64,000 bases of DNA from Dehalococcoidia bacterium (GCA_009692665.1 SHYT01000008.1:14764-78763); one strand, 5' to 3'; shown: positions 40,439 to 60,576, counted from the first letter of the stretch. Numbers and translations: made by a program. Notes: generated by a model from the sequence alone, not told the origin.

Positions 40439-40507
40439 TGGTTCTCTAGATGGCTTCACGCGTGTCCAGAAGAGAGCGGCAAAAAGAAAAATATACGAGG
40501 AGCGGGA

Positions 40508-41530: not shown

Positions 41531-41755
41531 GCACGGAAGAGATAAGAGAGTTGCTTCTAGCTGAAGCCAAGTTCTTCAAATTCAGATCCAAGTGGCTGGG
41601 CAGTCATCAATGTTGGTATGAAACAATTTGACATTCTTACTCAAGAAGGCATTGACCCCGCGCAACCTCTTCGGCTTCTAATGAGCCGATTCGTAGTAGA
41701 CTTGTTTCGGGAAAGCTAGCTCTGAGGCAACCAAAAATAAGAAGGGGGGGAGAAC

Positions 41756-42718: not shown

Positions 42719-42726
42719 CAGACTGG

Positions 42727-42764
42727 GCAGGCTGCGGACGGAATTCCGTCCGTAGCCTGCTTTT
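42727..42764 (+). terminator. Rho-independent terminator
   Basis: GCAGGCTGCGGACGG-AATT-CCGTCCGTAGCCTGC forms a 15-bp stem with one G-U pair, followed by TTTT. Confidence 0.8.
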
Positions 42765-42914
42765 AGTGGGTAGGACGCACATATCCGGACAGCTTTTAGC
42801 GGAAACGCCGGAAAGCTTTGTAGGACATGCGCGGATAGACCGGACTTGGCGAGGAGTTGGCAGCATCAGTCCACAGAGCGTCGAAAACGCATGACGAGAG
42901 GAAAGGGAGAAATA

Positions 42915-44807
42915 ATGGTTTCACGCCTACGACGACCAGGAACTGCCCTGTTCTTAGGTGTCATCCTAATGTTGGTTTTAGCTCTAGCTTGCGCTGGAGG
43001 AAAGACGGCTGCTCCGGCAGCCCCAGCTCCAGCACCGTCTACAAGCCCGGTGGCCGCTTCAGCACCGGCAACGACTCCTGCCAAAACGGTGGGGGAGACT
43101 ACCGGTACAGTTCCAGTTCTGGCTGCGGAACTCAAGCTCGACCCGCGTTCGGATGAGCCTGGTTCCACCATGCCGCAGGAAGCCCTGAAATATCACCACA
43201 CCAAGATGCCACTATGGACGAAGGCCAAGTACGGCGGTGAGCGTGTTGGGACCGGGGGGACCTACAACATTCTGGGCCAGAACCCCTTCACCGTCTTTAG
43301 CAAGCGTAACAATTTCATGGGCATGTTCATCATGATCGACGCTGGGACGTGCAGCTCTATCGGGCGCACAGACTTTTCTGTCTGTAATGGCGTCCGCAAC
43401 AACAACCTTACAGGCGTCTTAGTGCCCGGTATCATTGAGAAATGGGACCGGCCAGATTCCCTAACTGTGGTATTTACCATCCGTCAAGGGGTTCTTTGGC
43501 CCAACCTGCCTCCTATGAACCTCCGTCCCAACCGCAATGTAACCGTGGAGGACGTGAAGTGGTACTTTGAGACGCAGAAGAAAGAGGGCGTCTACCGGGA
43601 CACCTTCACGCTGGTGGACACCTTTGAGGTCGTCGACCAGAGGACATTGCGGCTCAAGTTCTCACAGCCCCACGCTACATTCATCACCATGATGGCGAAC
43701 TACGGCCTGGGCATCATTCCCCGCGAGTGCTACGAGGACAAGGATGGATGCCTTAGTAAGCGGCTCATTTCCCCCGGCCCGTTTATCTTTGACGAAGCAA
43801 GCTACCAGCCGCGGAGTGTGGCGATTTACAAGAAGAACCCCGAGTTTTGGCTGAAGGGTCTGCCTTATCTTGATCAGCTCCGGACCATCGCTGTCTTGGA
43901 CACGAATGCAGCGCGGGCGGCGTACATCACGGGGCAGTTCGACCAGTTCCAGAACTTTTCGCCTCGAGAACGTGACGCGCTGTTGAAGCAGGTGCCAAAT
44001 TCCCAGATCCAGACGCAGTATTGCTCCTGTGGGTCGGCGCATTTCCTGTTGAGATTAGACAAGGCGCCGTACAACGACGTTCGCGTGCGCCGCGCGTTGT
44101 CCATGGGCATGGACCGGCCAAAAGCCTGGCTCGCGGCCAACGACGGCTATAACGCCATGGGTATGCCGATGGCGTTTGACTTCCTGGGGCTCGAGATGTT
44201 CGTCAGTCTGAAGACGGCAGGTCCCACCAACCAGTACAACCCGACGGAGGCAAAGCGGCTCCTTACTGAAGCCGGGTATGCCAACGGGCTTACCGTTCCT
44301 ATTATCATGGCCACTACCTGGCCCACTTCGTGGAGCAGTGCAGACCTAGTTACGTCCATCCAGGAAGACTGGAAGAAAATCGGCGTAACCCTGGACTTAA
44401 AGGTCGTCGACCCTCTACAAGATGCGGGCATGCGGCGCGACAAGAACTGGGACGGCGGGCTGTTCAGCCAGTGCTGGGACTGCAGCGCCACGGACCCGGA
44501 CAGCTACTTCTTGATGGCGTACTCCAAGAGCCCGCGTAACCTGATGGGCCTCAATGACCCGATCATTGACGACATTTACCTCAAGGCCCGCTCGGAGCTC
44601 GACCCCAAGAAGCGTGAGCAACTCTACTGGGACTTCACGAACCGCATGTATGACCAGCAGTATGGCATCCACTTTGGCAATCCAAGTGGCTTCGAGTTCT
44701 TTGCACCGTGGCTTAGAAACGCCGCGAGCCATGTGTATGCGTATGGTGGCGTCACTAACTTCAGTTCCTGGGTCATGTGGGTTGATCCTGACTTGATGAA
44801 GAAATAA
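42915..44807 (+). CDS. Lipoprotein, ABC-type family-5 solute-binding protein (SBP3)
   Basis: ATG 42915 follows AAGGGAG. Lipobox LALAC, Ala/Pro-rich tether, and a body co-linear with and highly similar to SBP1. Confidence 0.85.
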   Translation: MVSRLRRPGTALFLGVILMLVLALACAGGKTAAPAAPAPAPSTSPVAASAPATTPAKTVGETTGTVPVLAAELKLDPRSDEPGSTMPQEALKYHHTKMPLWTKAKYGGERVGTGGTYNILGQNPFTVFSKRNNFMGMFIMIDAGTCSSIGRTDFSVCNGVRNNNLTGVLVPGIIEKWDRPDSLTVVFTIRQGVLWPNLPPMNLRPNRNVTVEDVKWYFETQKKEGVYRDTFTLVDTFEVVDQRTLRLKFSQPHATFITMMANYGLGIIPRECYEDKDGCLSKRLISPGPFIFDEASYQPRSVAIYKKNPEFWLKGLPYLDQLRTIAVLDTNAARAAYITGQFDQFQNFSPRERDALLKQVPNSQIQTQYCSCGSAHFLLRLDKAPYNDVRVRRALSMGMDRPKAWLAANDGYNAMGMPMAFDFLGLEMFVSLKTAGPTNQYNPTEAKRLLTEAGYANGLTVPIIMATTWPTSWSSADLVTSIQEDWKKIGVTLDLKVVDPLQDAGMRRDKNWDGGLFSQCWDCSATDPDSYFLMAYSKSPRNLMGLNDPIIDDIYLKARSELDPKKREQLYWDFTNRMYDQQYGIHFGNPSGFEFFAPWLRNAASHVYAYGGVTNFSSWVMWVDPDLMKK

Positions 44808-44875
44808 CGGTGGCAACCAGGTAACTAAGTTCTAACAGAGGTTAGACTAGACTAGTCGGCAAGCATGAGCACCGA

Positions 44876-44921
44876 GACCCCAAGAACTGGACACGGTAGA
44901 GCATCACCAGTTCTGGGGGTC
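44876..44921 (+). promoter_or_regulatory. Intercistronic hairpin between SBP3 and LLM-B2
   Basis: GACCCCAAGAACTGG / CCAGTTCTGGGGGTC forms a 15-bp stem with one mismatch and a 16-nt loop. Confidence 0.45.
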
Positions 44922-44997
44922 GCTCGGGTCTCTTTGGTCTCAGAATGTCGGGTTCAGCAGACGACCCAACAAATTTGGAAGGGGAGATGAGCATACA

Positions 44998-46053
44998 ATG
45001 AAATTTGCACCTTTCGGCGTTGGCGGCGGCGCATTTGAGGCTGCGGCAGAGACTGCGCAATTGGTTGAGTCAATCGGATATGATGGTTTATTCTTTGGAT
45101 TCCATCACTCGCCGGACTTGCAAGCGGCGGTGGGGATTAAGAACGCGCCTCCACTTGGCGGCGGTGGCAGTGACCGGGGCGGTTCCCAGTGGCCGCGCAT
45201 CGCGGCCCTGGCTGCGCGGACCAAAACGCTCACGTTTGGCACAGGGATATTCCTCCTGCCTTTTGCGCATCCGCTCAACGTCGCGGAAGACGTCGCGACT
45301 ATTGACCACATTTCTAAAGGGCGCATCATTCTGGGCGTGGGACCCGGCTACAACAAAGCCGACTTTGATATGTTCGGCATGCCCGTCTCGAATCGGGTCT
45401 CTTTGTTTGAGGAAGGCTTAGAAGTAATCAGGCGGGCATGGACGGAAGACAAGTTTAATTTTGTCGGGAAGCGATATACCATTCGCAATGCCCGCGTTCT
45501 TCCCAAGCCGTATCAGAAGCCGCACCCACCAATTTGGGTGGGCCCGTGGAGCATGGAAGGGTTCAAGCGCGCTGCACGGCAGGGGGATGGAGTCATCACC
45601 GATCCGATGCAGGGCAAGGCGGCGCTCAAGGCATTTATCGCTGCGTACCGTGAACTGTGTCTCGCCAGAGGCAAGAAGCCGGTCGTGGCATTAATGCGCG
45701 AGATGTTGCTCGCATCTAGCAAAGAGGAAGCGCTGCAGCTCTACGGCAAGTCCATTATCGGAACCATGCAGTACTATGCCTGGGGCGGCGTCCTGAACAA
45801 AGAATATGAGCCATGGCTCAAGGACGTGAAGTCGTACGACCAGATCACGTTCCAGATGGTCAACGCCGACAATCGCCTTCTCTGGGGCTCTCCAGACGAC
45901 ATAATTGGCCAGATCCACCAGATGAATGAAGAGTTCGGTGGTATCGATTACCTCATTCCCGCATTCGTAGGCACCGGTGGCCCGGATGCCGCGAAGCACC
46001 AGCAACAAACATTGCGTCTTTTCGGCGAAAAGGTTATGCCCAAGTTCAAGTAG
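44998..46053 (+). CDS. Luciferase-like (LLM) flavin-dependent oxidoreustase, subfamily B copy 2
   Basis: IGYDGLFFGFHH, IDHISKGRIILGVGPGY and KPHPPIWVGPWSMEG. Carries a Gly-rich insertion (PPLGGGGSDRGGS) relative to copy 1. Confidence 0.85.
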   Translation: MKFAPFGVGGGAFEAAAETAQLVESIGYDGLFFGFHHSPDLQAAVGIKNAPPLGGGGSDRGGSQWPRIAALAARTKTLTFGTGIFLLPFAHPLNVAEDVATIDHISKGRIILGVGPGYNKADFDMFGMPVSNRVSLFEEGLEVIRRAWTEDKFNFVGKRYTIRNARVLPKPYQKPHPPIWVGPWSMEGFKRAARQGDGVITDPMQGKAALKAFIAAYRELCLARGKKPVVALMREMLLASSKEEALQLYGKSIIGTMQYYAWGGVLNKEYEPWLKDVKSYDQITFQMVNADNRLLWGSPDDIIGQIHQMNEEFGGIDYLIPAFVGTGGPDAAKHQQQTLRLFGEKVMPKFK

Positions 46054-46056
46054 AAA

Positions 46057-46098
46057 GGAAATGCCCGTCATGCCTCAAACGGCATGGCGGGCATTTCC
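46057..46098 (+). terminator. Terminator hairpin after LLM-B2
   Basis: GGAAATGCCCGTCATGCC / GGCATGGCGGGCATTTCC forms an 18-bp stem with one G-U pair and a 6-nt loop, directly after the stop. Confidence 0.6.
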
Positions 46099-46199
46099 AG
46101 CTAGAACTTGTAATGTGGGTTCAAGAGAACTGGGGGCAAAGGTCGCCCTGAGGCGTCGCCTGAGTACTCCCCCGTGCATTCCATTCAAGGAAGGGTACT

Positions 46200-47387
46200 A
46201 TGGATCTGACTTATCCGCCTGAAGCAGAGGCGTTCCGCCAAGAGGTGATAGCCTGGCTACAGGCCAACTTGCCGTCAGGATGGGGCACCCCTCAATTCAA
46301 GCTGCCTGGCGACCCTAAGCAGCGGCGCGCATGGCATGTTGACTGGCACAGGAAGATGCATGCGGCTGGCTACGTCGGCCTGACGTGGCCCAAAGAATAC
46401 GGCGGCCAAGGCGCCGATCCTGTGATGAGTATGATGCTCAATGAGGAATTGACTCGGTTCGAGGCTCCGCAAGGGGCCAACGCGCTTGGCACGCGTATCG
46501 TTGGGCCAACCATCATCCAGTTTGGCAATGAAGAGCAGAAACGGGCCCACCTGTCCAAGATTCTGAGTGGCGAGGAAATGTGGTGTTTAGGAATGTCTGA
46601 GCCCGGCGCAGGCTCAGACCTCGCCTCCCTGCAGACCCGTGCCGTTGAAGAAGGTGATTTCTTTGTCGTCAACGGCCAAAAAGTGTGGACGTCTTCTGCC
46701 CACCTGGCAAATTACATTTACCTGTTGGTGCGGACGGATCCCACCGCTGAAAAACATCGGGGCATCAGCGTCCTGCTTGTTGACATGAAGACCCCAGGCA
46801 TCGTCGTGCGGCCGCTCAAGCAAATTACTGGCGAATCCGAATTCAATGAGGTCTTCCTCCAGGACGTTCGTGTCCCGCGCAGCAATCTCCTGGGCGAAAA
46901 GAACCAGGGGTGGCGCGTGATTATGGGTCAGTTAGGGTATGAGCGCTCCGGTGGTTCGCGTGGCATGAACTGCCAGCGGGCTTTAGAGGATTTGGTGCGG
47001 TTGGCAAGGAACACATATCGCAATGGCAAGCCAGCCAGTGAGGACCCAATCATCCGCAGAAAACTTGCTCAGCTTGCCATCGAGGTCAATATCGTTCGAC
47101 TAACTGATTACAAGGAGATGACCATCCAACTACAGGGAGGGCGCCCTGGCCCTGAGACATCCTTCGGCAAGCTGTTTTGGAGTGAGCTGAACCAGCGGCT
47201 CTCATCGGTAGGGGTGCAAATCTTGGGCTTAGAGGGTACTCTTAGCAAGCAATCCTCTGACGTAGTCAAGAACGGCGAATATCTTTACGCTTTTCTCCGT
47301 GCATATGGGAACACTATTGAAATGGGCACTTCGGAGATTCAGCGGAACATTATCGGGGAACGAGTATTAGGGCTGCCCCGCGGTTAA
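46200..47387 (+). CDS. Acyl-CoA dehydrogenase (FadE-type; C-terminus IEMGTSEIQRNIIGERVLGLP)
   Basis: ACAD N, middle and C domains are recognisable (GLTWPKEYGGQG, MSEPGAGSDLASL, GTSEIQRNII). Confidence 0.85.
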   Translation: MDLTYPPEAEAFRQEVIAWLQANLPSGWGTPQFKLPGDPKQRRAWHVDWHRKMHAAGYVGLTWPKEYGGQGADPVMSMMLNEELTRFEAPQGANALGTRIVGPTIIQFGNEEQKRAHLSKILSGEEMWCLGMSEPGAGSDLASLQTRAVEEGDFFVVNGQKVWTSSAHLANYIYLLVRTDPTAEKHRGISVLLVDMKTPGIVVRPLKQITGESEFNEVFLQDVRVPRSNLLGEKNQGWRVIMGQLGYERSGGSRGMNCQRALEDLVRLARNTYRNGKPASEDPIIRRKLAQLAIEVNIVRLTDYKEMTIQLQGGRPGPETSFGKLFWSELNQRLSSVGVQILGLEGTLSKQSSDVVKNGEYLYAFLRAYGNTIEMGTSEIQRNIIGERVLGLPRG

Positions 47388-47418
47388 GGCGCACTCTTTC
47401 TCAGGAAGGCCGACTACC

Positions 47419-48576
47419 ATGTTTTTTGACCTAACGGACGAACAGAAAGCTATTAAGAAAGCGGCAAGGGACATGCTGGAGATCGAATGTCCCAGGTCCT
47501 ACGTCCGCGCCATGATGGACGATGCCCGTGGGTATCAGCCGGAGCTTTGGAAGAAGATGGCGGATCTGGGCTGGATGGGCCTGGCTCTACCGGAACGCTA
47601 CGGTGGAGCAGGGCTGGAGTTCTTGTCGCTCACTGGTCTCATCGAAGAAATGGGGCGATTCTTGTTGCCAGGGCCTTTTGTCTCCACGGTTGTTGGTGGT
47701 GGACTAACACTGGCGGCGGCGGGCAGCCCTGTACAACAGGAGAGCATTCTGCCCAAGCTCGTCAGAGGAGACCTGCTGATGACGCTGGCCGTAGGCACAG
47801 ATCACGGCCGGTTGGATGCGGGGGGGGTACAGAATTCTGCAGTCCGGCAGGGAGACGGGTTTGTCTTGAATGGCATCGTTCGTTTGGTGCCGGACGCACA
47901 GACAGCAGACATAATTCTTCTTGCAGCCCGCACCAGCCAACAACATGAGGAAGGATTGACATTATTCCTTGTGGATGCGAAGGCCCCTGGACTGTCAGTG
48001 CATCCGCAGTACACTACCGATGGGCGCAAAGTCGCCAACTTGGAATTCTCTAGCGTTCGAGTGCCTTCCACCGCAGTGGTTGGGCGGGTAGATGGTGCCT
48101 GGCCGATAATAGCGGCAGCCCAGCGCCGGCTCACTCTATCTTTATGCGCGGAGGCTGTTGGGGGCGCAGGTATGGCTATGGAAATAAGTGTGGAATATGC
48201 CAAAACCCGAGTGGCATTCGGACGTCCCATTGGCATGTTCCAGGCGATTAAGCACAAGTGCGCCAACATGTTAGTGCAGGTTGAATCAGGACGGTTTCTA
48301 CTGTATTATGCGGCGTGGTTGCTGCAAGAAGGTGCTTCGGAGGCACCAGAGGCGGTGGCTGTGGCGAAGGCTTGGTGTGGCGATTCGTACACCAAAGTTG
48401 CTTCAGATGGTATCCAGGTGCATGGGGGGATTGGCATGACATGGGAACATGACATGCACCTGTTTCTCAAGCGCGCAAAGGTAATCGAATTGTCGTCGGG
48501 GGATTCTGATTACCACGCTGAGCACATCGCTAAGGAGCTCGAGCGCCGTGCAACGGCAATATCGAGTGCGAGATAG
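47419..48576 (+). CDS. Acyl-CoA dehydrogenase-fold protein (divergent; lacks the YEGT catalytic-base motif)
   Basis: ACAD-like throughout (ALPERYGGAG, FQAIKHKCANM), but the C-terminus reads VIELSSGDSDYHAEHIA instead of I-Y-E-G-T-S-E-I. Starts 31 nt after the preceding ACAD. Confidence 0.8.
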   Translation: MFFDLTDEQKAIKKAARDMLEIECPRSYVRAMMDDARGYQPELWKKMADLGWMGLALPERYGGAGLEFLSLTGLIEEMGRFLLPGPFVSTVVGGGLTLAAAGSPVQQESILPKLVRGDLLMTLAVGTDHGRLDAGGVQNSAVRQGDGFVLNGIVRLVPDAQTADIILLAARTSQQHEEGLTLFLVDAKAPGLSVHPQYTTDGRKVANLEFSSVRVPSTAVVGRVDGAWPIIAAAQRRLTLSLCAEAVGGAGMAMEISVEYAKTRVAFGRPIGMFQAIKHKCANMLVQVESGRFLLYYAAWLLQEGASEAPEAVAVAKAWCGDSYTKVASDGIQVHGGIGMTWEHDMHLFLKRAKVIELSSGDSDYHAEHIAKELERRATAISSAR

Positions 48577-48721
48577 GCTCAAGAGTAATCGGCTGTGGTC
48601 ATATAGGGTGTCTGGCATAATGGCCAGAGGGTGCTTTTACCGGTAATGAGCTTCCTTTTCCAGTGGGGAAGCGGGAAACAAGCGGCAGCAAAGATAACTG
48701 AGATGTGTCCAGGAGGGTTGC

Positions 48722-49603
48722 GTGCAGGCATTTGAGTATGTAAGCGCAAAGTCGGTAGGGGAGGCGGTTGGCGTCCTGTCTCAGCATGGTGAAGGGGCTC
48801 GCCTTATGGCGGGTGGGACAGATGTATTGGTACAGCTCCGGGCAGGGCGGCGCCCTCAGGTCAAGGTGTTGGTCGATGTCAAAGGTATCGGCGAGCTCAA
48901 CGAGCTTTCCTACAATGACCGTCAGGGCCTTATCATCGGGGCTGCCGTGCCTTGCTATCGCATCTACGAAGATCCCACGGTCATTAAGAGGTATCCAGGC
49001 ATCGTGGACTCCGCCTCAATTATTGGAAGTGTTCAAATCCAGGGCCGCGCATCGTTGGGCGGCAATATCTGCAATGCTACGCCCAGTGCAGATGGCATTC
49101 CCCCGCTCATTGCGTTGGGCGCGGTGTGTATCATAGCTGGCCCAAACAATAGTCGGCGGGAACTGCCTTTGGAGCAATTGTTTGCTGGACCTGGCCGCAC
49201 GACACTGCAGAACGGAGAGATGCTTATCTCCGTCAGGGTGCCGCCGCCGCCAGCCAACTCTGGAGCGCAATATCTGCGCTTTACACCTCGCAACGAAATG
49301 GATATCGCTGTTGCTGGAGTTGGTGCAGCTATCACTTTGAATGCCGCAAAGAACACGTTCGTATCTGGGCGCGTGGTTCTGGCTGCCGTTGCGCCTATAC
49401 CGCTGTTGGTGCCTGCCGCGGGCCAGGCGTTGGCTGGCAAGCCGGTGAACGATGAGACCATTGGCAAAGCGGCGGAAGCTGCGGTAGCAGCAGCGGTTCC
49501 GATTACTGACATGCGTGGCACTATTGAATACCGCAAGCACCTGGTAGGGGTACTGACCCGCCGGGCTCTCCAAGGTGCAATTCAAAGGGCGAAGGGGGTA
49601 TAG
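48722..49603 (+). CDS. Molybdenum hydroxylase FAD-binding (medium, CoxM/XdhB-like) subunit
   Basis: FEYVSAKSVGEAVGVL...LMAGGTDVLVQLR and GGNICNATPSADG match the FAD_binding_5 pattern. GTG start after AGGAGGG. Confidence 0.85.
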   Translation: MQAFEYVSAKSVGEAVGVLSQHGEGARLMAGGTDVLVQLRAGRRPQVKVLVDVKGIGELNELSYNDRQGLIIGAAVPCYRIYEDPTVIKRYPGIVDSASIIGSVQIQGRASLGGNICNATPSADGIPPLIALGAVCIIAGPNNSRRELPLEQLFAGPGRTTLQNGEMLISVRVPPPPANSGAQYLRFTPRNEMDIAVAGVGAAITLNAAKNTFVSGRVVLAAVAPIPLLVPAAGQALAGKPVNDETIGKAAEAAVAAAVPITDMRGTIEYRKHLVGVLTRRALQGAIQRAKGV

Positions 49604-49607
49604 TCAC

Positions 49608-50093
49608 GTGGCTGATAAAGTTCGAGTGCAATCAACTATCAATGAGGAAACCGTTGATTTTCTGTGCGAGCCTCGCCAGAGCTTGCTGGAGACGCTCCGG
49701 GATGTCTTGGGCATGACCGGTACCAAGGAAGGCTGCAACGACGGTAACTGCGGTGCTTGCACCGTCATTATTGATGGCAGAATGGTAACCTCATGCTTGG
49801 TGCTGGGGGTTGAAGCAAGCGGCAAGAAGATTGAGACCATTGAAGGCGTGTCTCAGCCGGATCATTTGCACCCCATTCAGCAGGCGTTCTTGGAAGGCGC
49901 AGCTCTGCAATGCGGCATTTGCACACCTGGCTTTATCATGGCGTCAAAGGCGCTGTTGCAGGTTGAGCCAAAGCCGTCGGAAGAGCGTATTCGCCTGTGG
50001 CTGGCTGGTAACCTCTGCCGCTGCACGGGCTACGACAAAATTGTCCGCTCTGTACAGAGCGCCGCCACTAAAATGAGTGGAGAGCGTAGGTAG
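49608..50093 (+). CDS. Molybdenum hydroxylase [2Fe-2S] (small, CoxS/XdhC-like) subunit
   Basis: GCNDGNCGACTV and CGICTPGF...CRCTGY cysteine clusters. GTG 49608 follows AAGGGGG, 4 nt after the medium-subunit stop. Confidence 0.9.
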   Translation: MADKVRVQSTINEETVDFLCEPRQSLLETLRDVLGMTGTKEGCNDGNCGACTVIIDGRMVTSCLVLGVEASGKKIETIEGVSQPDHLHPIQQAFLEGAALQCGICTPGFIMASKALLQVEPKPSEERIRLWLAGNLCRCTGYDKIVRSVQSAATKMSGERR

Positions 50094-50171
50094 GTTCTAA
50101 CTTGTGTTGTGGCAAACCGGAAACGAACCACGGAACAAAGGTTCACGCTGAGCCTTAGCAAGAAGTGGGTC

Positions 50172-50459
50172 ATGGCAGATGTCTGGATTCCGCCCATCAT
50201 GCAGCAGTGGACAGGCGGAGCGAAGCGCGTCCAGGTGTCAGGTGCTAGTATTCGGCAGATTATTGACAATTTGGAGCGACTCTATCCAGGTATTGCCGAG
50301 CATTTATATGAGGTTGACGAGGACAGACTAATGCCCGGCCTCGCCGTGTTTGTGGACGGCGAGGCCGCTACTCTTGGTCTCATGGAATCCGTCAAAGAAA
50401 ATGGTGAAGTCCACTTTCTTCCCGCTATTGGTGGCGGGGCAACCGCCCACAAGCGCTAA
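50172..50459 (+). CDS. MoaD/ThiS-family ubiquitin-like sulfur-carrier protein with C-terminal extension past Gly-Gly
   Basis: MADVWIPPIMQQWTGGAKRVQVSG...GEVHFLPAIGGG follows the ThiS/MoaD beta-grasp pattern but continues ATAHKR before the stop. The start is uncertain; the longest ORF starts at 50109. Confidence 0.65.
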   Translation: MADVWIPPIMQQWTGGAKRVQVSGASIRQIIDNLERLYPGIAEHLYEVDEDRLMPGLAVFVDGEAATLGLMESVKENGEVHFLPAIGGGATAHKR

Positions 50460-50575
50460 CCAATGGAACGCCAAAATTCTTAGGATATCTATCTCATCCA
50501 CACCTTCCGCACGCTGGGCTTTCGGATCAGTTCCCAGAGGATGTTACCCTTTCAAACAGCCGCCAATATTGACCC

Positions 50576-50609
50576 TTGACATACTATCATCTATGTGCTA
50601 ACTTCACAT
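50576..50609 (+). promoter_or_regulatory. Candidate PadR promoter (TTGACA-17-TAACTT) with ATGT-N9-ACAT inverted repeat
   Basis: TTGACA at 50576-50581, TAACTT at 50599-50604. The IR ATGTG/CACAT at 50593-50597 and 50605-50609 overlaps the -10. The start codon lies only about 10 nt downstream. Confidence 0.4.
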
Positions 50610-50614
50610 ACGTG

Positions 50615-51106
50615 ATGAACGATAAACAACAGAAGGCACGAAGAGGCACTCGCTCCTCTACTCAAGGCTCCAGTTCGCCTATGGGCATGTTCACCTTGAA
50701 TGAGATGCCCAAGTCGTTTCTAGAAGCATGGCTGCTTCTGATGCTTAGGACCTGGGGCGGGCACGGATATGCGCTTGCGGAAAACATGACTCGGATGGGG
50801 TTCTTTGGCATAGACCACACTCGTATCTATCGCCAGCTTCGCGATTTGGAAAAGCGTGGGTTTCTGCTATCTAGTTGGGAGGCGGCTTCTTTTGGTCCAG
50901 CAAAACGCGTCTACAAAGTTACCGCCGCAGGTGAGCAGTTCCTGTCGGTGTGGGCTCACACGCTACAAGGCTACAGCAAGATGATGGAGGCGTTCACCTC
51001 CATGTACACCGGTGCGTTCAGCGCTCCACCTACCCGGGGCCGAACCCAGGAGGGGAGCGCGGACCAAAAGGGCAAAGAAAAGCAGGAGGATACTACACAT
51101 GGCTAA
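50615..51106 (+). CDS. PadR-family transcriptional regulator
   Basis: LLLMLRTWGGHGYALAENM...IYRQLRDLEKRGFLLSSWE...KRVYKVTAAGEQFL matches the winged-helix PadR pattern. ATG 50615, with GTG 50612 as an alternative. Confidence 0.8.
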   Translation: MNDKQQKARRGTRSSTQGSSSPMGMFTLNEMPKSFLEAWLLLMLRTWGGHGYALAENMTRMGFFGIDHTRIYRQLRDLEKRGFLLSSWEAASFGPAKRVYKVTAAGEQFLSVWAHTLQGYSKMMEAFTSMYTGAFSAPPTRGRTQEGSADQKGKEKQEDTTHG

Positions 51107-51112
51107 CGCTAA

Positions 51113-51424
51113 CTCGAACGGGCACCCATCTATGACTGGATTTTTGGCATAAGCCTCATATCTGCTGTCATCAGCACACAACTCCTACCACAGAGCATAC
51201 CCGTGTATCTTGTACAGTCAATTCGCTTTCTGAAGCCCGTCTTCATCGGCGATATCATCACGACGACCTGTGAGATCAAGGAAGTGCAGGCTGACCGTCC
51301 GGTCATGGTTATTGCCTGTCGGTGCAAGAATCAGCGGGGAGAAGAGGTTATGACTGGCGAAGCCTCCGTCCTTGTCGACTCGTATCCATTCGTCCCACGT
51401 TCCCGCGCTCCCAAACAGGTGTAA
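51113..51424 (+). pseudogene. N-terminally truncated MaoC hot-dog fragment
   Basis: The frame opens at a TAA 4 nt after the padR stop. It encodes ...GISLISAVISTQLLPQSIPVYLVQSIRFLKPVFIGDIITTTCEIKEV, the C-terminal two-thirds of a MaoC dehydratase. The D-x-N-P-x-H region is absent. Confidence 0.6.
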
Positions 51425-51660
51425 CAAGTGGGGGTAGCCGCCTAACCACCAAGCACAGCCCCGGTTAGAGTAGCAGCTATTTGGCCTTCCCACTGGAAAT
51501 ACAAGGACTCCTGCGGCTCATCTAGCCAGGAGTCTTTGTGTTTGTTAGGACTCTTGCAGTATTTCTCAAACGCCCATCTTTCGTACTTGTGCGACTCCAA
51601 CCTGGAACAAAGACGGGCGAAATCAGTACACTGTGTTTAGTTAGGACTAAGAGGACATGC

Positions 51661-52371
51661 ATGGTTGACGAACAAACGATCGTTGCGAACCTGAAGCGGG
51701 TTCGAGACAGGATGCAACTGGCGTGCGAAAAAGCTGGGCGTGACCCGGCTGGGGTTGCCCTCCTCCTGGCAACTAAGACAGTGCCTGCGGACGTGATTGC
51801 CGTGGCTGTGAAAGCGGGAGCAAACCTTCTTGCTGAGAACCAGGCCCAGGAGTTTGTGCAGAAGCGGCCTTTGCTGGCCGGCCTCCCCATTACCTGGCAC
51901 TTCATTGGCCACCTCCAGACGAACAAGGTTAGGAGCCTCGTACCGCATGTTGCGTGCATCCAGTCTGTGGACCGGCTATCACTTGTTGCGGAGTTGCACA
52001 AACAGATGAGTAACCGAGGCTTGATTCAGGACGTTCTCATTGAGGTGAACACCTCGGGCGCTGCGAGCAAGCAGGGGGTTGCACCAGCCGAAGCACTGGC
52101 CTTTGTGCGCGATGTCGCCCGCTACACGTCACTGCGCGTGCAGGGCTTAATGACTATTGGCCCGCTGACTGCGGATACGTCCACGGTCAGGGATAGCTTT
52201 CGCACGCTCCGAGAGCTTGGTAGTACCATCCAGCAGGAAGGGCTAGAAGGCGTGCAGATGAAAGAGCTTTCAATGGGCATGTCCGGCGACTTTGAACTTG
52301 CGATTGCAGAGGGCGCTACGATAGTTCGGGTTGGCACGGCGGTGTTTGGCCACCGTCCGCTACCTGCTTGA
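51661..52371 (+). CDS. yggS: YggS-family pyridoxal-phosphate homeostasis protein
   Basis: LLATKTVPADVI (PLP Lys), WHFIGHLQTNKV, VNTSGAASKQGV and LSMGMSGDFELAIAEGATIVRVGTAVFG. ATG 51661 follows AAGAGGA. Confidence 0.85.
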   Translation: MVDEQTIVANLKRVRDRMQLACEKAGRDPAGVALLLATKTVPADVIAVAVKAGANLLAENQAQEFVQKRPLLAGLPITWHFIGHLQTNKVRSLVPHVACIQSVDRLSLVAELHKQMSNRGLIQDVLIEVNTSGAASKQGVAPAEALAFVRDVARYTSLRVQGLMTIGPLTADTSTVRDSFRTLRELGSTIQQEGLEGVQMKELSMGMSGDFELAIAEGATIVRVGTAVFGHRPLPA

Positions 52372-52533
52372 TGGCCCGCCGCCGCGTTATCTGCATCCCC
52401 AGCCGTATTCCGTTCTGTTAACGCCCCTGATCCCGATCATTGGAGCGCAGGTATATCATAGGTGCCATTGGTGTGCGGCTACGCCTGCGTGGCTTCATGC
52501 TCGGCTACCGGGTCAAAAACATCGGAGGGATCT

Positions 52534-53871
52534 GTGGCTATAAGCGTGTCAACCCACAAGCCTGGAAAGATTTTCTACGGCTGGTGGGTCATTTGGGTAA
52601 TCGTTATTGGTGCATTCTTCTCCGCTGCTCTTTCACAGGTCTTCACCGGCGCCATGCTTCCAGCCATAGCCAGCGACACGGGGTGGAGCCGAGCTTCCAT
52701 CACCTATGCCGTCAGCTTGGGGAGCATCATGGCGGGCCTAGTTGCCCCATTTTTCGGTCGCTTGGCCGACATTCACGGCTCGCGGATGCTCTCTGTAGTT
52801 GGTCTGCTTGTTGCCGCCGCAGCGATGGTTGCAGTTGCGTACAGCGCGGCGTTTGGTATCGTCGTTTTCTACGGGGCCTATATTATTGGCCGCGCCATAT
52901 CCCAAAACTGTCTGAGCGGCGTAGTGCCAAGAACTGCCGTTGTCAACTGGTTCCGCCGCATGCGCGGCAGGGCCATGGGCTTCACCCAAATGGCGCTGCC
53001 GCTGGGCAGTGCCATCATGTTTCCCATTTTTCAGGTAGCTATGGGCAGAGGCCTTACCTGGAAGAGCGTGTTTCTGATATTGAGCTTGTGCATGCTGGCA
53101 ATTGTGCCGCTTGCTGTTCTTGTCTTGCGCCGTCGCCCGGAAGACATGGGCCTGCTGCCAGATGGCGACGACGCGCTGGCGGGTGCCCAGCCGTCCGCGA
53201 AGCCTGCGAAGCAACACCGGCAGGGTGATGTAGAGCACAACTACACCCTGAAGCAGGCCGCCCGCACGCGCTCGTTCTGGATGCTGAACGCTGCGCTCTC
53301 GCTGGGGGTCTGTGCCAATGGCGCGCTCAGCTTTCACCAGGTGGCCTACTTCATGGACAAGGGACTGGCGGCTGCAATGGCGGCGACGGCCCTGAGTGTG
53401 TACGCCCTGTCCGGTGCCCTTGCGAATGGCATCTGGGGGTTCCTGGTTGAGCGGATGTCCGAGCGTGTGATTGCGGCCTTCACCGTCCTGTGCGCCGGTC
53501 TTATTACATTCTTCCTGCTCATGGTTGATACGCCGGCAGAGGCTATCCTTTTTGCTGCCCTGTTCGGGTTGGCTGCACGGGGCGAATCGTCGCTTATTCT
53601 CATGATGCAGGCTGAGTACTATGGAAGGAACTCCTTTGGCGCCATCTCCGGTTTTTCCACCCCGTTTCAACAGATTGCGCTGGGGCTGGGGCCCACCGTT
53701 GCGGTGATCCCCTACCAGTTAACGGGGTCATATACGGTGCCTTTTGTTGCGTTTGGGTTCATGTACGTTGTTGCGGCGACGCTGATCTGGTTTGCTAAGA
53801 AACCTGGGCCACCACCAGCAGAGACTTCTCCTATCGGTGGGTTAGCAGGTATTGGCAGTGTGCCTGCGTAG
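52534..53871 (+). CDS. MFS transporter (oxalate/formate antiporter-like)
   Basis: About 12 hydrophobic helices and an MFS motif A FFGRLADIHGSRM. GTG 52534 lies 5 nt after GGAGG; the longest ORF starts at 52462. Confidence 0.8.
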   Translation: MAISVSTHKPGKIFYGWWVIWVIVIGAFFSAALSQVFTGAMLPAIASDTGWSRASITYAVSLGSIMAGLVAPFFGRLADIHGSRMLSVVGLLVAAAAMVAVAYSAAFGIVVFYGAYIIGRAISQNCLSGVVPRTAVVNWFRRMRGRAMGFTQMALPLGSAIMFPIFQVAMGRGLTWKSVFLILSLCMLAIVPLAVLVLRRRPEDMGLLPDGDDALAGAQPSAKPAKQHRQGDVEHNYTLKQAARTRSFWMLNAALSLGVCANGALSFHQVAYFMDKGLAAAMAATALSVYALSGALANGIWGFLVERMSERVIAAFTVLCAGLITFFLLMVDTPAEAILFAALFGLAARGESSLILMMQAEYYGRNSFGAISGFSTPFQQIALGLGPTVAVIPYQLTGSYTVPFVAFGFMYVVAATLIWFAKKPGPPPAETSPIGGLAGIGSVPA

Positions 53872-54103
53872 ACAGTATCCCTTCGAGCTTGCCCTGCCGT
53901 TCGACAGTGGATTGCTTGGGCGGCTTCATACCGTAAGCAGTATTTCGCCGCGAGTGGTGTGAAGCAAGGGGTAGGTGTCCCGACAAACTGCTGCGTCTGG
54001 CCATGGCCGTATGCACTCCTACGCGCTTGGGGCTACAGCTAGGACAGCCAGGAGAAGGAGAAAGCGTAGCTTTCTCCTCGTGCTTACGTTTTACTCGGGC
54101 CAT

Positions 54104-54301
54104 TTACTTGGCCGGGCGGCGGTGTGTTTTGGCGACCCGGCGGGTGGCTGCGCGCTTTTTGGGAGCGCGGTCTCGCTGGCCAATGGAGGCCTGGATGAAC
54201 TGCAAAACACTCTGCAAGGCCTGCAGCGTCACTGGTTTGACCAGGTGGAAGTCGAACCCCGCCTCCCGCGAGCGGCGCAGGTCTTCGGTTGGCCGAAGCA
54301 C
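54104..54301 (-). pseudogene. Remnant of a response-regulator receiver domain (C-terminal end only)
   Basis: REAGFDFHLVKPVTLQALQSVL matches the alpha4-beta5 (aGfd.hl.KPv) end of receiver domains. There is no phospho-acceptor Asp region and the frame is closed by a stop at 54425. Confidence 0.4.
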
Positions 54302-54447
54302 TGGGGTGGGTTTCTTACTCCTATATTTCCCCTTGAAGAGTGGCAGCGGACGTGCGGGCTTAACGCAAGTCGGCTCAACGCCTGAGAGAGTCGAGAACTT
54401 CCCGTAGCAACCGCGCGTATCAGTCTATTCGCGGCTGCTGTGTTGGT

Positions 54448-54524
54448 GAGACGATAACGTTGTTGAGACTATGCAATTTCTTTGTCGTGTGTGAGCGTTC
54501 ATCGGCAAGAGACGATAACGTTGT
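54448..54524 (+). repeat. Two perfect 16-nt direct repeats GAGACGATAACGTTGT
   Basis: Copies at 54448-54463 and 54509-54524, 61 nt start to start. They lie between the receiver remnant and the zinc-ribbon ORF. Confidence 0.7.
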
Positions 54525-54556
54525 CGGCCCACAAGAAGTAGTGTATGCTATTGCCC

Positions 54557-55006
54557 ATGAACAAGATCGACGCCTCGTCTTTGGGCAGGATGCTGGCTGC
54601 ACGGCGGCAGCGCCGTGGGAGCGTGTGCCCGGTCTGCGGCGCCGGCTTCAGCGCGTTTGGGCGCCAGAAGTATGACCGGCCTGCTTGCAGGAAGCGCGCT
54701 TTTCGGATGAAAGCGCAATTGCTTGCCGAAGGTACAGCGAAGCGGCGGTCAGGGGTTCAGCGGAAGGCGCGTGCCGGCAAGAAGGCTGCCGCCTCAATTC
54801 AGAAGGCACAACAGCCCCCATCAGCGAACGTTCCCCAGAGGCTGGTCTGGAGGCTCTGGGTTCGGGATCCACAGAACTGGCAATTCAGGTCCGATGGGAC
54901 AACGCACTTCATTAATCCGGAGACGCATTACGTGCAACCTGGACTGCGCTGTCCGCCTTCGGTGCTGAGAGTGCTTATCATGCGGGGAGTGGAGAAGCGA
55001 CGGTGA
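54557..55006 (+). CDS. Hypothetical protein with CxxC...C zinc-ribbon-like N-terminus and basic linker
   Basis: CPVCGAGFSAFGRQKYDRPACRKRAFR, then a Lys/Arg/Ala-rich stretch. No family recognised. ATG at 54545 or 54557. Confidence 0.35.
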   Translation: MNKIDASSLGRMLAARRQRRGSVCPVCGAGFSAFGRQKYDRPACRKRAFRMKAQLLAEGTAKRRSGVQRKARAGKKAAASIQKAQQPPSANVPQRLVWRLWVRDPQNWQFRSDGTTHFINPETHYVQPGLRCPPSVLRVLIMRGVEKRR

Positions 55007-55414
55007 AGTCTGCTTGGCACGTGCGGGGAACATACAGCGTATGACTGGGCTTTTGCTGTCAGGCCGCCTGCCGCAACTTTACCGCAAGGTCGGCTTTGAA
55101 AAGACGAAGCAGCGAGCCTTGTGGCGGAATTGCTAGAAGGCAAAGGTATCCAGATGCCGCCCCAACAGCAAGTCAGTACCACGTTCAAGAAGGCACCACG
55201 GGCAAAGGAACCAAAGGTGGAAACCTTAGCAATGCCGCTCGACGGGTAGCCGGACTTTTGCATCAGACCTCCGACATTTGCATCAAGACCGACTTATTCA
55301 GCAAAGCCCACGATACGCAAACATTCGTCATACTCAAGGCACTCCACAACGAAATCCTTCAGTGAATACAATGGGTAGTGCTATGGCTAATCGAACGTTA
55401 GGTTAGGGGGGAAC

Positions 55415-56290
55415 ATGCCGGAAGTACGACGCCCAGACGGGGCCGTGATCCATTACGAGGTGTTTGGCTTTGGCTATCCGGTCTTGCTGATTGCACCGGG
55501 CGGGCTCAACAGCGAGATTGGCTTTTGGGAGCGCAGCCGCATTAACCCGCTGAAGCGCCCGGAGTTTGCGGGTTTCAGGTTCATTGGCATGGACCAGCGG
55601 CACGCAGGGGAAAGCTGGAACGCGCCAATGGCCTACTCCTATGAGCTTACGACCGGCGACCAGCTCGCGATTCTTGACCAGCTTGGCGTTGAGAAGGCGC
55701 ACGTGTGGGGTGGGTGCATTGGCGTTGCCCACGTGACCAACTTGCTGAAGACGGCGCAGCACCGCTTTAGCGCCGCAGTGTGCCAGGACCCCGTGGGACT
55801 GGACCACACGAACTCCATCGACGTGTTTATGTCGATGTTTGCGCCCACGCTGAAGCTGGTGCGTGAGAAGGGCACGGAGGGCGTGGTGCAGGCCGCGCTG
55901 GGAAACCCAATGTTTGTTGACCAGAACAACGGCGGGCCATTTGCCAAGCACATCGCGGGTGACTCTGCGTTCCGGGAGAGAATGCAGAAGATGAGTGCGG
56001 ACGAGTACATCCGCATTATTGAGGCGTTTGCCGCTGGCATGTGGCCCAACAATCCGCCGTTCCTGGTGGGTAACGAGGAGTGGATCAAGACGTTTAAGAC
56101 CCCAATGCTTATCCTGCCTGGCAACGACCGGTTCCACCCAACAACGGTCGCCTACCGTCTGGCGGGCAACGCACTGAACGCACGCTGCCTGGAGGTGGAC
56201 TGCCGGAGCGAGGAGAACCTGCCGCGCACCATCAAGAAAGTGGCGGAGTTCCTGACGCTGCACACGCCCAAGGAAGCGGTGAAGGCTTAA
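55415..56290 (+). CDS. Alpha/beta-fold hydrolase with Cys at the nucleophile elbow
   Basis: YPVLLIAPGG and the elbow HVWGGCIGVAH (G-x-C-x-G; Cys codon at 55715-55717). ATG follows GGGGGGAAC. Confidence 0.75.
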   Translation: MPEVRRPDGAVIHYEVFGFGYPVLLIAPGGLNSEIGFWERSRINPLKRPEFAGFRFIGMDQRHAGESWNAPMAYSYELTTGDQLAILDQLGVEKAHVWGGCIGVAHVTNLLKTAQHRFSAAVCQDPVGLDHTNSIDVFMSMFAPTLKLVREKGTEGVVQAALGNPMFVDQNNGGPFAKHIAGDSAFRERMQKMSADEYIRIIEAFAAGMWPNNPPFLVGNEEWIKTFKTPMLILPGNDRFHPTTVAYRLAGNALNARCLEVDCRSEENLPRTIKKVAEFLTLHTPKEAVKA

Positions 56291-56338
56291 CGTTCGTGCG
56301 TCGTTGCGGCACCCTGATATGCTTTCACATCGGCGCAG

Positions 56339-57376
56339 TTAAGGGGTTGCAGCGAGTTCTTTGCGCAGGATTGGGGCGACGCGGGTGCCGAGCAGCTCAA
56401 TAGCTTGCATTAGCTTGGGATGAGGCAAAGAGGCGGCGTTCATTTGAAACGTGATGCGGGAAATGCCACCCAGCGCTGCACTATGTCGCAGGATTTTCGC
56501 CGCCACCACTTCAGCGGTGCCGATCAGCAGGGCGCCGTCCGGCCTTAGTTGAGCGTCGAACTGGGCGCGGGTGACTGGCGACCACCCACGCTCCTTCCCG
56601 ATAGATGTGAAGGCGCGGGCGTACCCCGGAAAGAAGTCTTCTGCGGCCTCCTGCGCCGTCGCGGCCACATAGCCCAGGGCGTGGACGCCGACCTTCAATT
56701 GATCGGGTGAGAACCCGGCCAGCTTGCCAGCCTCCCTGTAGAGATCGACAAGCGGCCGGAAGCGCCGCGTTTCGCCGCCGATGATGGCGACCATCAGTGG
56801 AAGGCCGAGCTCGCCGGCGCGCAGGAATGACTGTGGGCTCCCGCCAACACCCAGCCAAATGGGCAAGGAGTCCTGCAATGGCCTGGGGTAGACGCCTTGT
56901 CCGGTCAGCGCGGCCCGATGTTTGCTGGACCAGTGAACATGCTCGTTCTCGCGGATATTGAGCAGCAGATCAAGCTTATCCGCAAAGAGAGAGTCGTAGT
57001 CTTCCAGCTTAAAGCCAAACAGGGGGAATGAGTCGGTGAACGACCCGCGGCCCACCACCATCTCCGCCCGGCCCTGAGAAAGCAGGTCAAGGGTGGCGAA
57101 GTTCTGAAAGACCCGTACGGGATCGGCTGAACTCAGGACGGTTACGGCGCTGGTCAGACGGATGCGGTGGGTGCGCGCCGCCGCAGCTCCAAGAATAACC
57201 GTAGGAGCCGAATCGAGGAACTCCTTGCGATGGTGTTCACCGACGCCAAATACGTCCAGCCCGACCTGGTCTGCATATTCGATTTGTTCCACCAAGTTAC
57301 GCAGACGGTCGGACGGACTCACCGCCAAACCCTGGCCCTCGTAGGCCGCTGCGAAGCTATCAACACCAATTTGCAT
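56339..57376 (-). CDS. Luciferase-like (LLM) flavin-dependent oxidoreductase
   Basis: MQIGVDSF..., GLDVFGVGEHH and DLLSQGRAEMVVGRGSF. ATG 57376 follows GGGAGAAGG; the longest ORF starts at 57418. Confidence 0.85.
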   Translation of the reverse strand: MQIGVDSFAAAYEGQGLAVSPSDRLRNLVEQIEYADQVGLDVFGVGEHHRKEFLDSAPTVILGAAAARTHRIRLTSAVTVLSSADPVRVFQNFATLDLLSQGRAEMVVGRGSFTDSFPLFGFKLEDYDSLFADKLDLLLNIRENEHVHWSSKHRAALTGQGVYPRPLQDSLPIWLGVGGSPQSFLRAGELGLPLMVAIIGGETRRFRPLVDLYREAGKLAGFSPDQLKVGVHALGYVAATAQEAAEDFFPGYARAFTSIGKERGWSPVTRAQFDAQLRPDGALLIGTAEVVAAKILRHSAALGGISRITFQMNAASLPHPKLMQAIELLGTRVAPILRKELAATP

Positions 57377-57770
57377 GGGCCTTCTCCCTTGGAAAGATAT
57401 TGTTTGGGAAGTGGTCAACTTCTTGTGCCTGGCACCATTATTTGTGACACACGTACAAAAGAGAAGTACGCACGTTCATGTGCAGCAGGCACACTCGTTC
57501 CTGTCCCCACGTAATCCGCTCCTGCTTCCGCTTTGCTTGGAGACCCCTTCCTAAAACCTAAGAAATGGTAGCGAACGGGCCTTGCCGTTGCTAGTTGCTT
57601 TCTTTGGATCAGCTTGCCCCTGCGCGGGTACCGCATTCCTTTTAGGGAGCAGATCATAACGCTTCGGCATGGGGGTTGGGTGGGCCGGCCGGAACTGTGG
57701 CACCGCAGCCGTGGGTTACGCGGTACAATTGCACGCGTAATAAAGCGGCGCGGCAGAGATTGGGGGCGCA

Positions 57771-58916
57771 ATGCCTGACATCATGTTGACCGAAGAAGAG
57801 TTGATGCTCAAAAGCGCGATCCGCGACTTTGCGGAACGGGAAGTCGCGCCGAGGGCGATGGAGATTGACCAGGAAGAGAGGTTCTCGTTTGAGAATTTCC
57901 ACGCCATGGGGAAGCTGGGACTGTTTGGGATGACGCTGGACCCCAAGTACGGCGGCAGCGCGGGCGGCATCAAGCCGGTGGTTGTGGTGGCGGAGGAGCT
58001 GGCGAGGGTATGCGCGTCCACGTCGAACGCGTTTGTGGTGCAGACCGGGCTGGCGGGCTATCCCATGAATCAATTTGGCAATGAGAAGCAGAAAGCACGC
58101 TGGCTGCCGGGGCTGATATCGGGCGAGAAGGTGGGCGCGTACTGCCTGACGGAGCCGGGAAACGGCAGCGACGCGGCGGCGGCATCCACGATTGCCAAGA
58201 AGGTCAGCGGTGGGTACGTGCTGAACGGGAGCAAGACGTTCATCACGCACGGGACCATCGGCGACGTGCTCATTGTATTTGCCACCATGGACATGGCGCT
58301 AAAGCACCGGGGCTTTGTGGCGCTGGTGCTTGAGAAGGGCATGAAGGGGCTGACAACGCAGAAGATTACCGGCAAGATGGGCATCCGCTCGTCCGACACA
58401 GGCACGATGTTTTTTGACAACGTGGAAGTGCCGGAGGAGAACCGGCTGGGCGAGGAAGGCCAGGGCTTCCGGATTGCGATGCAGACGCTGGACAACAGCC
58501 GCGTGGGCATTGCGGCGCAGGCGCTGGGCATTGCGCAGGGGTCGCTGGACGAGGCGCTTAAGTACGCCAAGCAGCGGCGCGCGTTTGGGCAGGCCATTGC
58601 CGACTTCCAGGCCATCCAGTTCTACCTGGCGGACATGGCGATGCGCGTGGAGGCGTCCCGGCTGTTGACCTACCAGGCGGCGGCACTCAAGGACGCAGGC
58701 CAGCCGTACGTGAAGCAGGCGTCCATGGCGAAGGCATATGCATCCGAGGCGGCAGTGTTCTGCGCGGACCGGGCGGTGCAAATTTTCGGCGGGTACGGAT
58801 ACATTCGCGAGTCTAAGGTGGAGCGGTTTTACCGGGATGCGCGCATCACGCCGATTTATGAGGGGACAAGCGAGATCCAGCGGATTGTGATTGCGCGGCA
58901 CCTGTTGCAGGAGTAG
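57771..58916 (+). CDS. Acyl-CoA dehydrogenase (canonical short/medium-chain type)
   Basis: CLTEPGNGSDAAA and the C-terminal PIYEGTSEIQRIVIARHLL, which carries the catalytic Glu motif. Confidence 0.9.
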   Translation: MPDIMLTEEELMLKSAIRDFAEREVAPRAMEIDQEERFSFENFHAMGKLGLFGMTLDPKYGGSAGGIKPVVVVAEELARVCASTSNAFVVQTGLAGYPMNQFGNEKQKARWLPGLISGEKVGAYCLTEPGNGSDAAAASTIAKKVSGGYVLNGSKTFITHGTIGDVLIVFATMDMALKHRGFVALVLEKGMKGLTTQKITGKMGIRSSDTGTMFFDNVEVPEENRLGEEGQGFRIAMQTLDNSRVGIAAQALGIAQGSLDEALKYAKQRRAFGQAIADFQAIQFYLADMAMRVEASRLLTYQAAALKDAGQPYVKQASMAKAYASEAAVFCADRAVQIFGGYGYIRESKVERFYRDARITPIYEGTSEIQRIVIARHLLQE

Positions 58917-58924
58917 AGACGTCG

Positions 58925-59752: not shown

Positions 59753-59790
59753 TAGACAAACGGTCTGCATTGTTGTGTCCTGGAGGATGT

Positions 59791-60552: not shown

Positions 60553-60576
60553 AGAGTTCAGTTTGAGGGATATCTT

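Follow-up and report, generated by a model that had tools for sequence, protein, structure and literature searches.

The carrier gene and its neighbours

The stretch of DNA analysed here (the window, 1..64000) carries on its plus strand, at 50172..50459 with the stop codon included, a gene for a 95-aa ThiS/MoaD/CysO-like beta-grasp protein, hereafter the carrier, which is documented by its ORF, by a match to Pfam ThiS (PF02597), by 66 homologs, by an AF2 model and by Foldseek. The ORF is real, and its closest homologs, at up to E = 2e-29 and 63% identity, lie far above chance. We placed the start at the ATG at 50172 because the listed full-length homologs open at the equivalent position with M-[AP]-x-V-[WFY]-I-P; their N-termini rule out the upstream GTG at 50109, which was discarded. 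The gene begins 78 nt beyond the stop of a gene for the S subunit of a molybdenum hydroxylase (50093), and its product ends in ...HFLPAIGGGATAHKR, written out a second time as ...EVHFLPAIGGGATAHKR. Translation and alignment thus bore out the originally predicted ORF with its internal Gly-Gly and six-residue tail, and likewise its position directly after the S-subunit gene.

Gly88 and Gly89, encoded at 50433..50438 (+), are invariant in the 33-sequence family alignment, and the Pfam and PDB profile matches end there. Since these two residues are invariant, the functional Gly-Gly, which is presumed to be the site of adenylation and thiocarboxylation, is placed at 50433..50438, and the tail is ATAHKR. 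The HFLPA before the Gly-Gly is also invariant, and residue 87 is Gly, Ser or Ala. The tail consists of six codons (50439..50456, +) followed by the stop at 50457..50459; it is the same in three other assemblies, is unconserved in comparison with relatives and is predicted to be disordered, residues 88-95 having a pLDDT below 50 in the AF2 model.

A search with PF02597, which had been proposed as a check on the original prediction, matched residues 13-89 at 28.1 bits against a cutoff of 22.5, the profile match stopping at residue 89. The AF2 model, based on the 33-sequence alignment, is a beta-grasp (pLDDT 88.4, pTM 0.78), and all of the top Foldseek matches are sulfur carriers or Ubls. By its Pfam score and its AF2 model, the carrier is therefore a ThiS/MoaD-superfamily beta-grasp protein, as had been predicted; the Gly-Gly that characterizes the extreme C-terminus of this superfamily is here followed by ATAHKR.

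The carrier resembles CysO more than it does bona fide MoaD. The best PDB profile matches were to CysO (4n6e_B, E = 9e-16; 3dwg_C, E = 1.5e-11), and CysO was also at the top of the Foldseek results (TM 0.84-0.89, 33-35% identity), with a Thermus MoaD-related protein, SAMP1 and MoaD coming after CysO in the profile and Foldseek rankings. The closest solved relatives are thus the CysO proteins of M. tuberculosis (Rv1335, PDB 3dwg/3dwm) and Amycolatopsis orientalis (4n6e), with which the carrier shares an N-terminal V-x-IP...TGG motif and a C-terminal hLPAhxGG. CysO is partnered by CysM and by the JAMM protease Mec+, whose genes adjoin its own. In contrast, the window carrier has six residues beyond the GG, its window holds neither a PLP enzyme nor a JAMM gene, no linked cysM and mec were found in the window or in the Pfam-annotated contexts of its relatives, and the conserved neighbour is a molybdenum hydroxylase. 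E. coli MoaD (1fm0) has in common with the carrier the beta-grasp, the C-terminal hydrophobic-P-x-h-x-GG and the setting of a molybdenum-cofactor enzyme, but the likeness is at the level of the fold only (15% identity, Foldseek E = 2e-4). Moreover, the carrier falls below the cutoff of the NCBIfam model TIGR01687 moaD_arch (28.9 against 49.5) and adjoins neither moaE nor a neighbourhood of Moco biosynthesis genes, so that neither mark of MoaD in the strict sense was found. The top NCBIfam match, to SAMP1, was likewise sub-threshold (32.6 bits against 60), as was that to Urm1_like (22.7 against 70), and a modifier of the SAMP1/Urm1 type would also be expected beside an E1 or JAMM gene, neither of which is linked; no other MoaD model in NCBIfam was listed for the carrier at E <= 0.01.

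The S-subunit gene (49608..50093, +) encodes the [2Fe-2S] protein of a xanthine-oxidase-family molybdenum hydroxylase (Pfam Fer2_2 and Fer2) and is 65-73% identical to the S genes of operons with the order M-S-L-ThiS-like; the public gene call is 161 aa, and the mechanical ORF opens at a GTG at 49575. It is preceded by the gene for the FAD-binding M subunit of the same hydroxylase (48722..49603, +; Pfam FAD_binding_5 and CO_deh_flav_C), which is 53-58% identical to the M genes of such operons. Two paralogous genes for a molybdopterin-binding L subunit, both candidate partners of the M and S subunits, lie 25-30 kb upstream of the carrier. L paralog 1 (19681..22146, +; Pfam Ald_Xan_dh_C, MoCoBD_1 and MoCoBD_2) is 62% identical to the L gene standing before the carrier at another locus, L003, and has no equivalog, its best NCBIfam match being a sub-cutoff one to 4-hydroxybenzoyl-CoA reductase alpha. 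L paralog 2 (23264..25588, +), assigned by Pfam, is 56-58% identical to ThiS-linked L genes and is also sub-cutoff in NCBIfam. Neither L gene is followed by a ThiS-like gene, and a six-frame search of the window with the family HMM found a single copy of the carrier, with no second or decayed copy after the two L genes. The likeness of the M, S and L genes to those of the four-gene operons, together with L paralogs that lack a carrier, makes the arrangement in the window look like the fission of an ancestral M-S-L-carrier operon.

No NCBIfam equivalog covers the L clade as a whole, which scores best with 4-hydroxybenzoyl-CoA reductase alpha (~465 bits, the cutoff being 995; PDB 1rm6, E = 1.6e-91) and with XdhA. 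The CO-dehydrogenase motifs AYXCSFR and AYRGAGR are absent from the four L sequences inspected (both window paralogs and those of L003 and L014), which by this active-site criterion rules out CO dehydrogenase as their identity.

Several other features of the window were recorded. The 1.1 kb between the L paralogs (22147..23263) contains no ORF of at least 100 aa, no Rfam match and no relic of a carrier. Downstream of the carrier, a 73-aa ORF at 51203..51424 (+), called as a gene by public pipelines, resembles MaoC/hotdog dehydratase models in their C-terminal part only, with scores under the cutoffs, and may be what is left of a truncated gene. The window also encodes at least seven luciferase-like monooxygenases, three family III CoA-transferases, five enoyl-CoA hydratases, three SBP_bac_5 binding proteins and several MFS transporters and acyl-CoA dehydrogenases, a gene content typical of SAR202-type Dehalococcoidia. 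An Rfam scan of the window at gathering thresholds returned no family and hence no Moco riboswitch, and promoter and terminator consensus matches around the carrier were not more numerous than in shuffled sequence.

Variation of the C-terminal tail

The tail had originally been put forward as the headline feature of the protein, with the proviso that its stop codon might be a sequencing artefact. The identical 95-aa protein is encoded in three other assemblies (ENA ERZ1305449, Logan SRR8561391 and SRR8561390) and is also deposited at NCBI from a Dehalococcoidia MAG. Because the product is identical in these assemblies, the position of the stop is reproducible and not a one-off error, and a sequencing artefact is ruled out as the origin of the tail.

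As a headline feature, on the other hand, the tail did not hold up. Among 176 representatives of the family at 90% identity, 109 (62%) end exactly at GG, and the same is true of the carrier at ~58 of 80 species-representative loci. The remaining 67 representatives (~38%) have tails of 1-37 aa, of which 37 begin with Ala; the tails have no other sequence in common. Even close relatives differ in this respect, as in the case of P0007 (tail GTVN) and P0016 (18 aa), whose N-termini match. On the evidence of the sequences compared, the tail is neither conserved nor distinguishing, and that of the window is one case of a common minority state. A few members of an exhaustive library at 50% identity run on in frame into unrelated genes downstream, which encode an alpha/beta hydrolase, a methyltransferase or a VTT membrane protein; none of the long representatives is a Rosetta-stone fusion of the carrier to MoaE, E1, JAMM or an L subunit. 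The variable tails and these read-through fusions indicate, as far as sequences can, that the stop codon after the GG is evolutionarily labile.

That most of the genes end exactly at GG is the pattern to be expected if the free Gly carboxylate is the working end of the protein. The tails and read-through fusions found in ~38% of the relatives would block adenylation unless they were processed, and ATAHKR is presumably removed before activation. The lability of the stop after the Gly-Gly may thus indirectly predict a processing peptidase. Extended carriers matured by JAMM proteases had been named as a precedent, and the literature supports this: the tails of QbsE (GG-CF) and CxnE (GG followed by 10 aa) are proposed to be removed by QbsD and CxnF, JAMM proteases of the same clusters (PMC5925218). 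Like the window carrier, QbsE and CxnE have residues after the Gly-Gly that need to be removed before adenylation, and their activating E1, MoeZ, may be encoded elsewhere (PMC5925218). They differ from it in that their secondary-metabolite cluster includes the JAMM gene, whereas a JAMM motif was found near only one of 97 carrier loci, and in that the tail of the carrier family is unconserved and missing from most relatives. The superfamily itself, and tails after the GG, are already known.

Two members of the family with unusual architectures were seen. In P0066 (103 aa), from an ENA contig of 546 bp, an unrelated N-terminus (PF12225) is joined to the C-terminal half of the carrier, probably through a chimeric gene call or as an artefact of the short contig. 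At L033 (OZ241860.1, a Dehalococcoidia MAG), two copies of the carrier stand in tandem at 10001..10531 and 11051..11581, with a period of 1050 bp. Each copy is 176 aa long and consists of an 89-aa beta-grasp ending in GG and an 87-aa extension that has no Pfam match and is partly conserved between the two copies. A PIN-domain ORF (10528..10935) lies behind the first copy, and the arrangement suggests that an insertion of the toxin-antitoxin type is being read in frame with the carrier. An entry of the exhaustive library, P0299, has the same length of 176 aa.

Linkage to molybdenum hydroxylase genes

When one genome was scanned for each GTDB species, at least 569 relatives of the carrier were found, the best 80 of which all come from Dehalococcoidia, SAR202 or Chloroflexota MAGs; at E <= 1e-10 the family comprises 677 clusters at 50% identity. 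At 75 of these 80 species-representative loci, a gene for the L subunit of a xanthine-oxidase-family hydroxylase lies immediately upstream on the same strand, four of the other five having only a divergent BKACE gene and one having neither L nor BKACE. The gap between the L gene and the carrier has a median of 56 nt and is 2-6 nt in 13 loci, and no fusion of the two was found in 97 loci. The 80 loci are mostly syntenic, sharing rhomboid, cytidylate kinase, CobN and BKACE genes, and are therefore not independent observations. The linkage nevertheless holds in eight non-syntenic contexts, the window included, some of them on Planctomycetota-type contigs: the order is M-S-carrier in the window and at L008, M-S-L-carrier at L012/L013 (Planctomycetaceae), L014 and L015/L016, Aldedh-M-S-L-carrier at L100, M-S-L-x-carrier on a contig of JGI 3300047160 and L-carrier at L099. 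No hydroxylase lies within 8 kb of the carrier in one relative, L097. The sole gene that is conserved beside the carrier across unrelated flanks is that of a hydroxylase subunit.

These findings show that the conserved feature of the carrier family is its gene linkage to molybdenum hydroxylases and not its tail, and that the family is bound, at the level of the genome, to an uncharacterised clade within the xanthine-oxidase family. The literature on links between ThiS/MoaD and xanthine-oxidase-family enzymes and on the molybdenum enzymes of SAR202, as far as our incomplete coverage of it extends, does not describe this linkage; that a family of CysO-like carriers is linked to such hydroxylases across phyla thus appears to be undescribed.

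Some flanking genes recur. Contigs from outside the Chloroflexota repeatedly have an Aldedh gene next to the M-S-L-carrier operon (L012, 10301..11779; L100, 2614..4071; JGI 3300047160), which hints at the pathway of this hydroxylase clade. In subsets of the SAR202-type loci, a gene for ATP sulfurylase (16 loci; for example L023, 2210..3487, minus strand) or for an MBL-rhodanese fusion (12 loci; for example L048, 1879..3270, minus strand) lies ~5 kb upstream of the L-carrier pair, with the remaining cases at syntenic loci. These neighbours could reflect a supply of sulfur or mere synteny.

We also looked for the partners that a sulfur carrier would need. Pfam annotation of 48 ORFs of the window, nearly all of at least 150 aa, revealed no ThiF/MoeB, JAB, MoaE, XdhC or cysteine synthase, six-frame motif scans revealed no E1 signature in the window or in 96 loci, and tblastn with MoaE, MoeB, MoaD and MoaC from E. 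coli and with Mtb MoaE2 gave no match in either set, which is in line with the claim that the window has no JAMM, E1 or MoaE gene. A search for MoaE homologs with the E. coli query gave only enterobacterial sequences among the 120 matches listed. The neighbourhood searches reach ~10 kb from the carrier in 97 loci and cover the whole 64-kb window. No CysM-type PLP enzyme, AMP-ligase or E1 adjoins the carrier in the window or in the contexts inspected, and XdhC_CoxI is not among the Pfam-annotated genes of the inspected contexts, which are a subset of the loci. The sole credible JAMM motif in the 97 loci is at L014, 5.3 kb upstream of the carrier on the opposite strand, where Pfam identifies a Prok-JAB gene (4298..4717, -) divergent from the CoA_transf_3 gene (4941..6212, +) that heads the M-S-L-carrier operon. 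The carrier of this locus ends in GG-A, and there is no cysM beside the Prok-JAB gene. The carrier may be either the only MoaD of its genome or a dedicated paralog.

Possible roles of the carrier

Part of the role that had been foreseen beside molybdenum hydroxylases, namely the linkage itself, is strongly supported by comparative genomics, and the function in cofactor sulfuration is our interpretation of it. The gene linkage and the precedent of the MoaD proteins linked to tungsten AORs suggest a supply of sulfur to the pterin cofactor of the linked enzyme, and we give about even chances to a scheme in which the carrier is activated in trans and supplies sulfur for the pterin cofactor of its hydroxylase. 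According to the model and to homology, the 95-aa product folds as a beta-grasp with a flexible C-terminus. ATAHKR would then be clipped by a peptidase encoded elsewhere, for instance of the JAMM/MPN+ type, exposing Gly89, which, following the chemistry of the family, would be adenylated by an E1 of the MoeB/MoeZ/ThiF type, also encoded elsewhere, and converted by a persulfide to a thiocarboxylate. The sulfur would finally go into the making of the pterin cofactor of the hydroxylase encoded alongside, in all probability into the molybdopterin dithiolene with the help of a MoaE-type partner. Activation at a distance has a parallel in the case of MoeZ, a single copy of which serves several carriers in trans, and the trimming of tails by JAMM proteases has also been described (PMC5925218).

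The nearest precedent for the carrier is the MoaD linked to tungsten AORs (Iyer, Burroughs and Aravind 2006; aorD/aorE in Aromatoleum aromaticum). Such MoaD genes strictly adjoin tungsten AOR genes and are proposed to make the pterin of that enzyme (PMC1779556), and the MoaD-like products of aorD/aorE are missing from the purified AOR (PMC6365974). The carrier is similarly placed strictly beside the gene of a pterin-cofactor oxidoreductase, as shown by 75 of the 80 loci and by the eight contexts. The enzymes differ, AOR being a tungsten bis-pterin enzyme and the one linked to the carrier a xanthine-oxidase-family molybdenum hydroxylase with M, S and L subunits, and AOR neighbourhoods often hold MoeB, MoaE and MoaA, none of which was found near the 97 carrier loci. 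A second parallel is provided by the accessory genes of the XdhC/PaoD/CoxF type, which, according to PMC2997495 and PMC3909100, stand at the end of structural operons and are presumed to act in cofactor maturation. The carrier, too, is an accessory gene that ends an operon of structural genes, but its fold and chemistry are unrelated to theirs, and none of them is present among the Pfam-annotated genes of the inspected contexts. Several observations count against supply of the pterin cofactor by a carrier activated in trans: no E1, MoaE, MoeB or MoaC was found near the 97 loci and a JAMM gene near only one (L014), the scores against MoaD models are below their cutoffs, ~38% of the relatives are tailed or fused, much of the linkage is shared synteny, and L097 lacks it.

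The thiocarboxylate might instead donate the terminal, cyanolysable Mo=S sulfido ligand, replacing or feeding the route through an XdhC chaperone and a cysteine desulfurase; this we regard as unlikely, for no ThiS-type protein is known to us to donate this ligand, and the carriers to which the family bears a resemblance have PLP or MPT-synthase partners. It would account for a linkage to enzyme genes rather than to Moco biosynthesis genes and for the lack of XdhC_CoxI among the Pfam-annotated genes of the inspected contexts. The place of the carrier at the 3' end of hydroxylase operons, which according to PMC2997495 is the usual one of XdhC/PaoD/CoxF-type maturation genes, would also fit. With a similarly low probability, the carrier could have no sulfur chemistry at all and be a structural or assembly subunit of the hydroxylase, its GG a relic, in the manner of TmoB, a beta-grasp subunit of the oxygenase toluene monooxygenase (PMC1779556). 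Spacing from the L or S genes that resembles co-transcription, an activating enzyme not found near the 97 loci, and the tolerance of tails and of fusions to unrelated downstream genes in ~38% of the members would all be consistent with such an adaptor. However, the invariant GG and HFLPA and the precise stops after the GG point to selection on a free C-terminal glycine, and the MoaD-like products linked to AOR are not part of the purified enzyme (PMC6365974).

The closeness to CysO, the best match in both sequence and structure, raises the question of whether the carrier serves cysteine or another thio-metabolite in general, for example thioacids made with family III CoA-transferases, and is near the hydroxylase by chance. 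CaiB-like transferases do work with such carriers in PDTC clusters (PMC1779556), the L014 operon is flanked by Prok-JAB and CoA_transf_3, and in 12-16 syntenic loci there are ATP sulfurylase and MBL-rhodanese genes at a distance of ~5 kb; we nonetheless consider a general carrier quite improbable, given that no CysM-type PLP enzyme, AMP-ligase or E1 adjoins it in the window or the inspected contexts and that only the hydroxylase subunit gene stays beside it across unrelated flanks. The possibility of tagging, which had been raised at the outset, found no specific support. SAMP1 is the top NCBIfam match (32.6 bits) and SAMP1 structures are among the fold matches, but this score is far under the 60-bit cutoff, no E1, JAMM or proteasome-type genes are linked, and the conserved neighbour is a metabolic enzyme, so that a SAMP/TtuB-like modifier conjugated to the lysines of target proteins is highly unlikely. 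It is just as hard to credit that the tailed allele is a decaying or non-functional copy that has lost its stop codon, or an assembly or consensus error shared between data sets. Most relatives do end at GG, and heterogeneous tails and read-through fusions attest to the lability of the stop codon, but four data sources give one and the same 95-aa product, none of the invariant residues is missing from the intact core, and tails in ~38% of the family are too frequent for all of them to be dead.

Besides the supply of pterin sulfur in trans, which we prefer, a bolder version may be put forward as a rather doubtful suggestion. The family would then be the maturation factor of a single clade of the xanthine-oxidase family, whose thiocarboxylate would give either the Mo=S ligand or an enzyme-specific dithiolene sulfur and displace the XdhC/cysteine-desulfurase route, and its frequent but unconserved tails would imply that these bacteria have a ubiquitin-like, sequence-independent peptidase cutting behind the Gly-Gly.

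The tail matters less in all this than the linkage. SAR202-type Dehalococcoidia abound in the deep ocean, and few of their enzyme families have expanded as much as the hydroxylases of the xanthine-oxidase family; the carrier, being small and easily expressed, offers a means of probing how these hydroxylases acquire their sulfur. Conserved beside them and present in at least 569 species-representative genomes, it would point to a step in cofactor maturation unlike that of the XdhC paradigm, or at the least to a dedicated pterin supply such as has been proposed for tungsten AORs.
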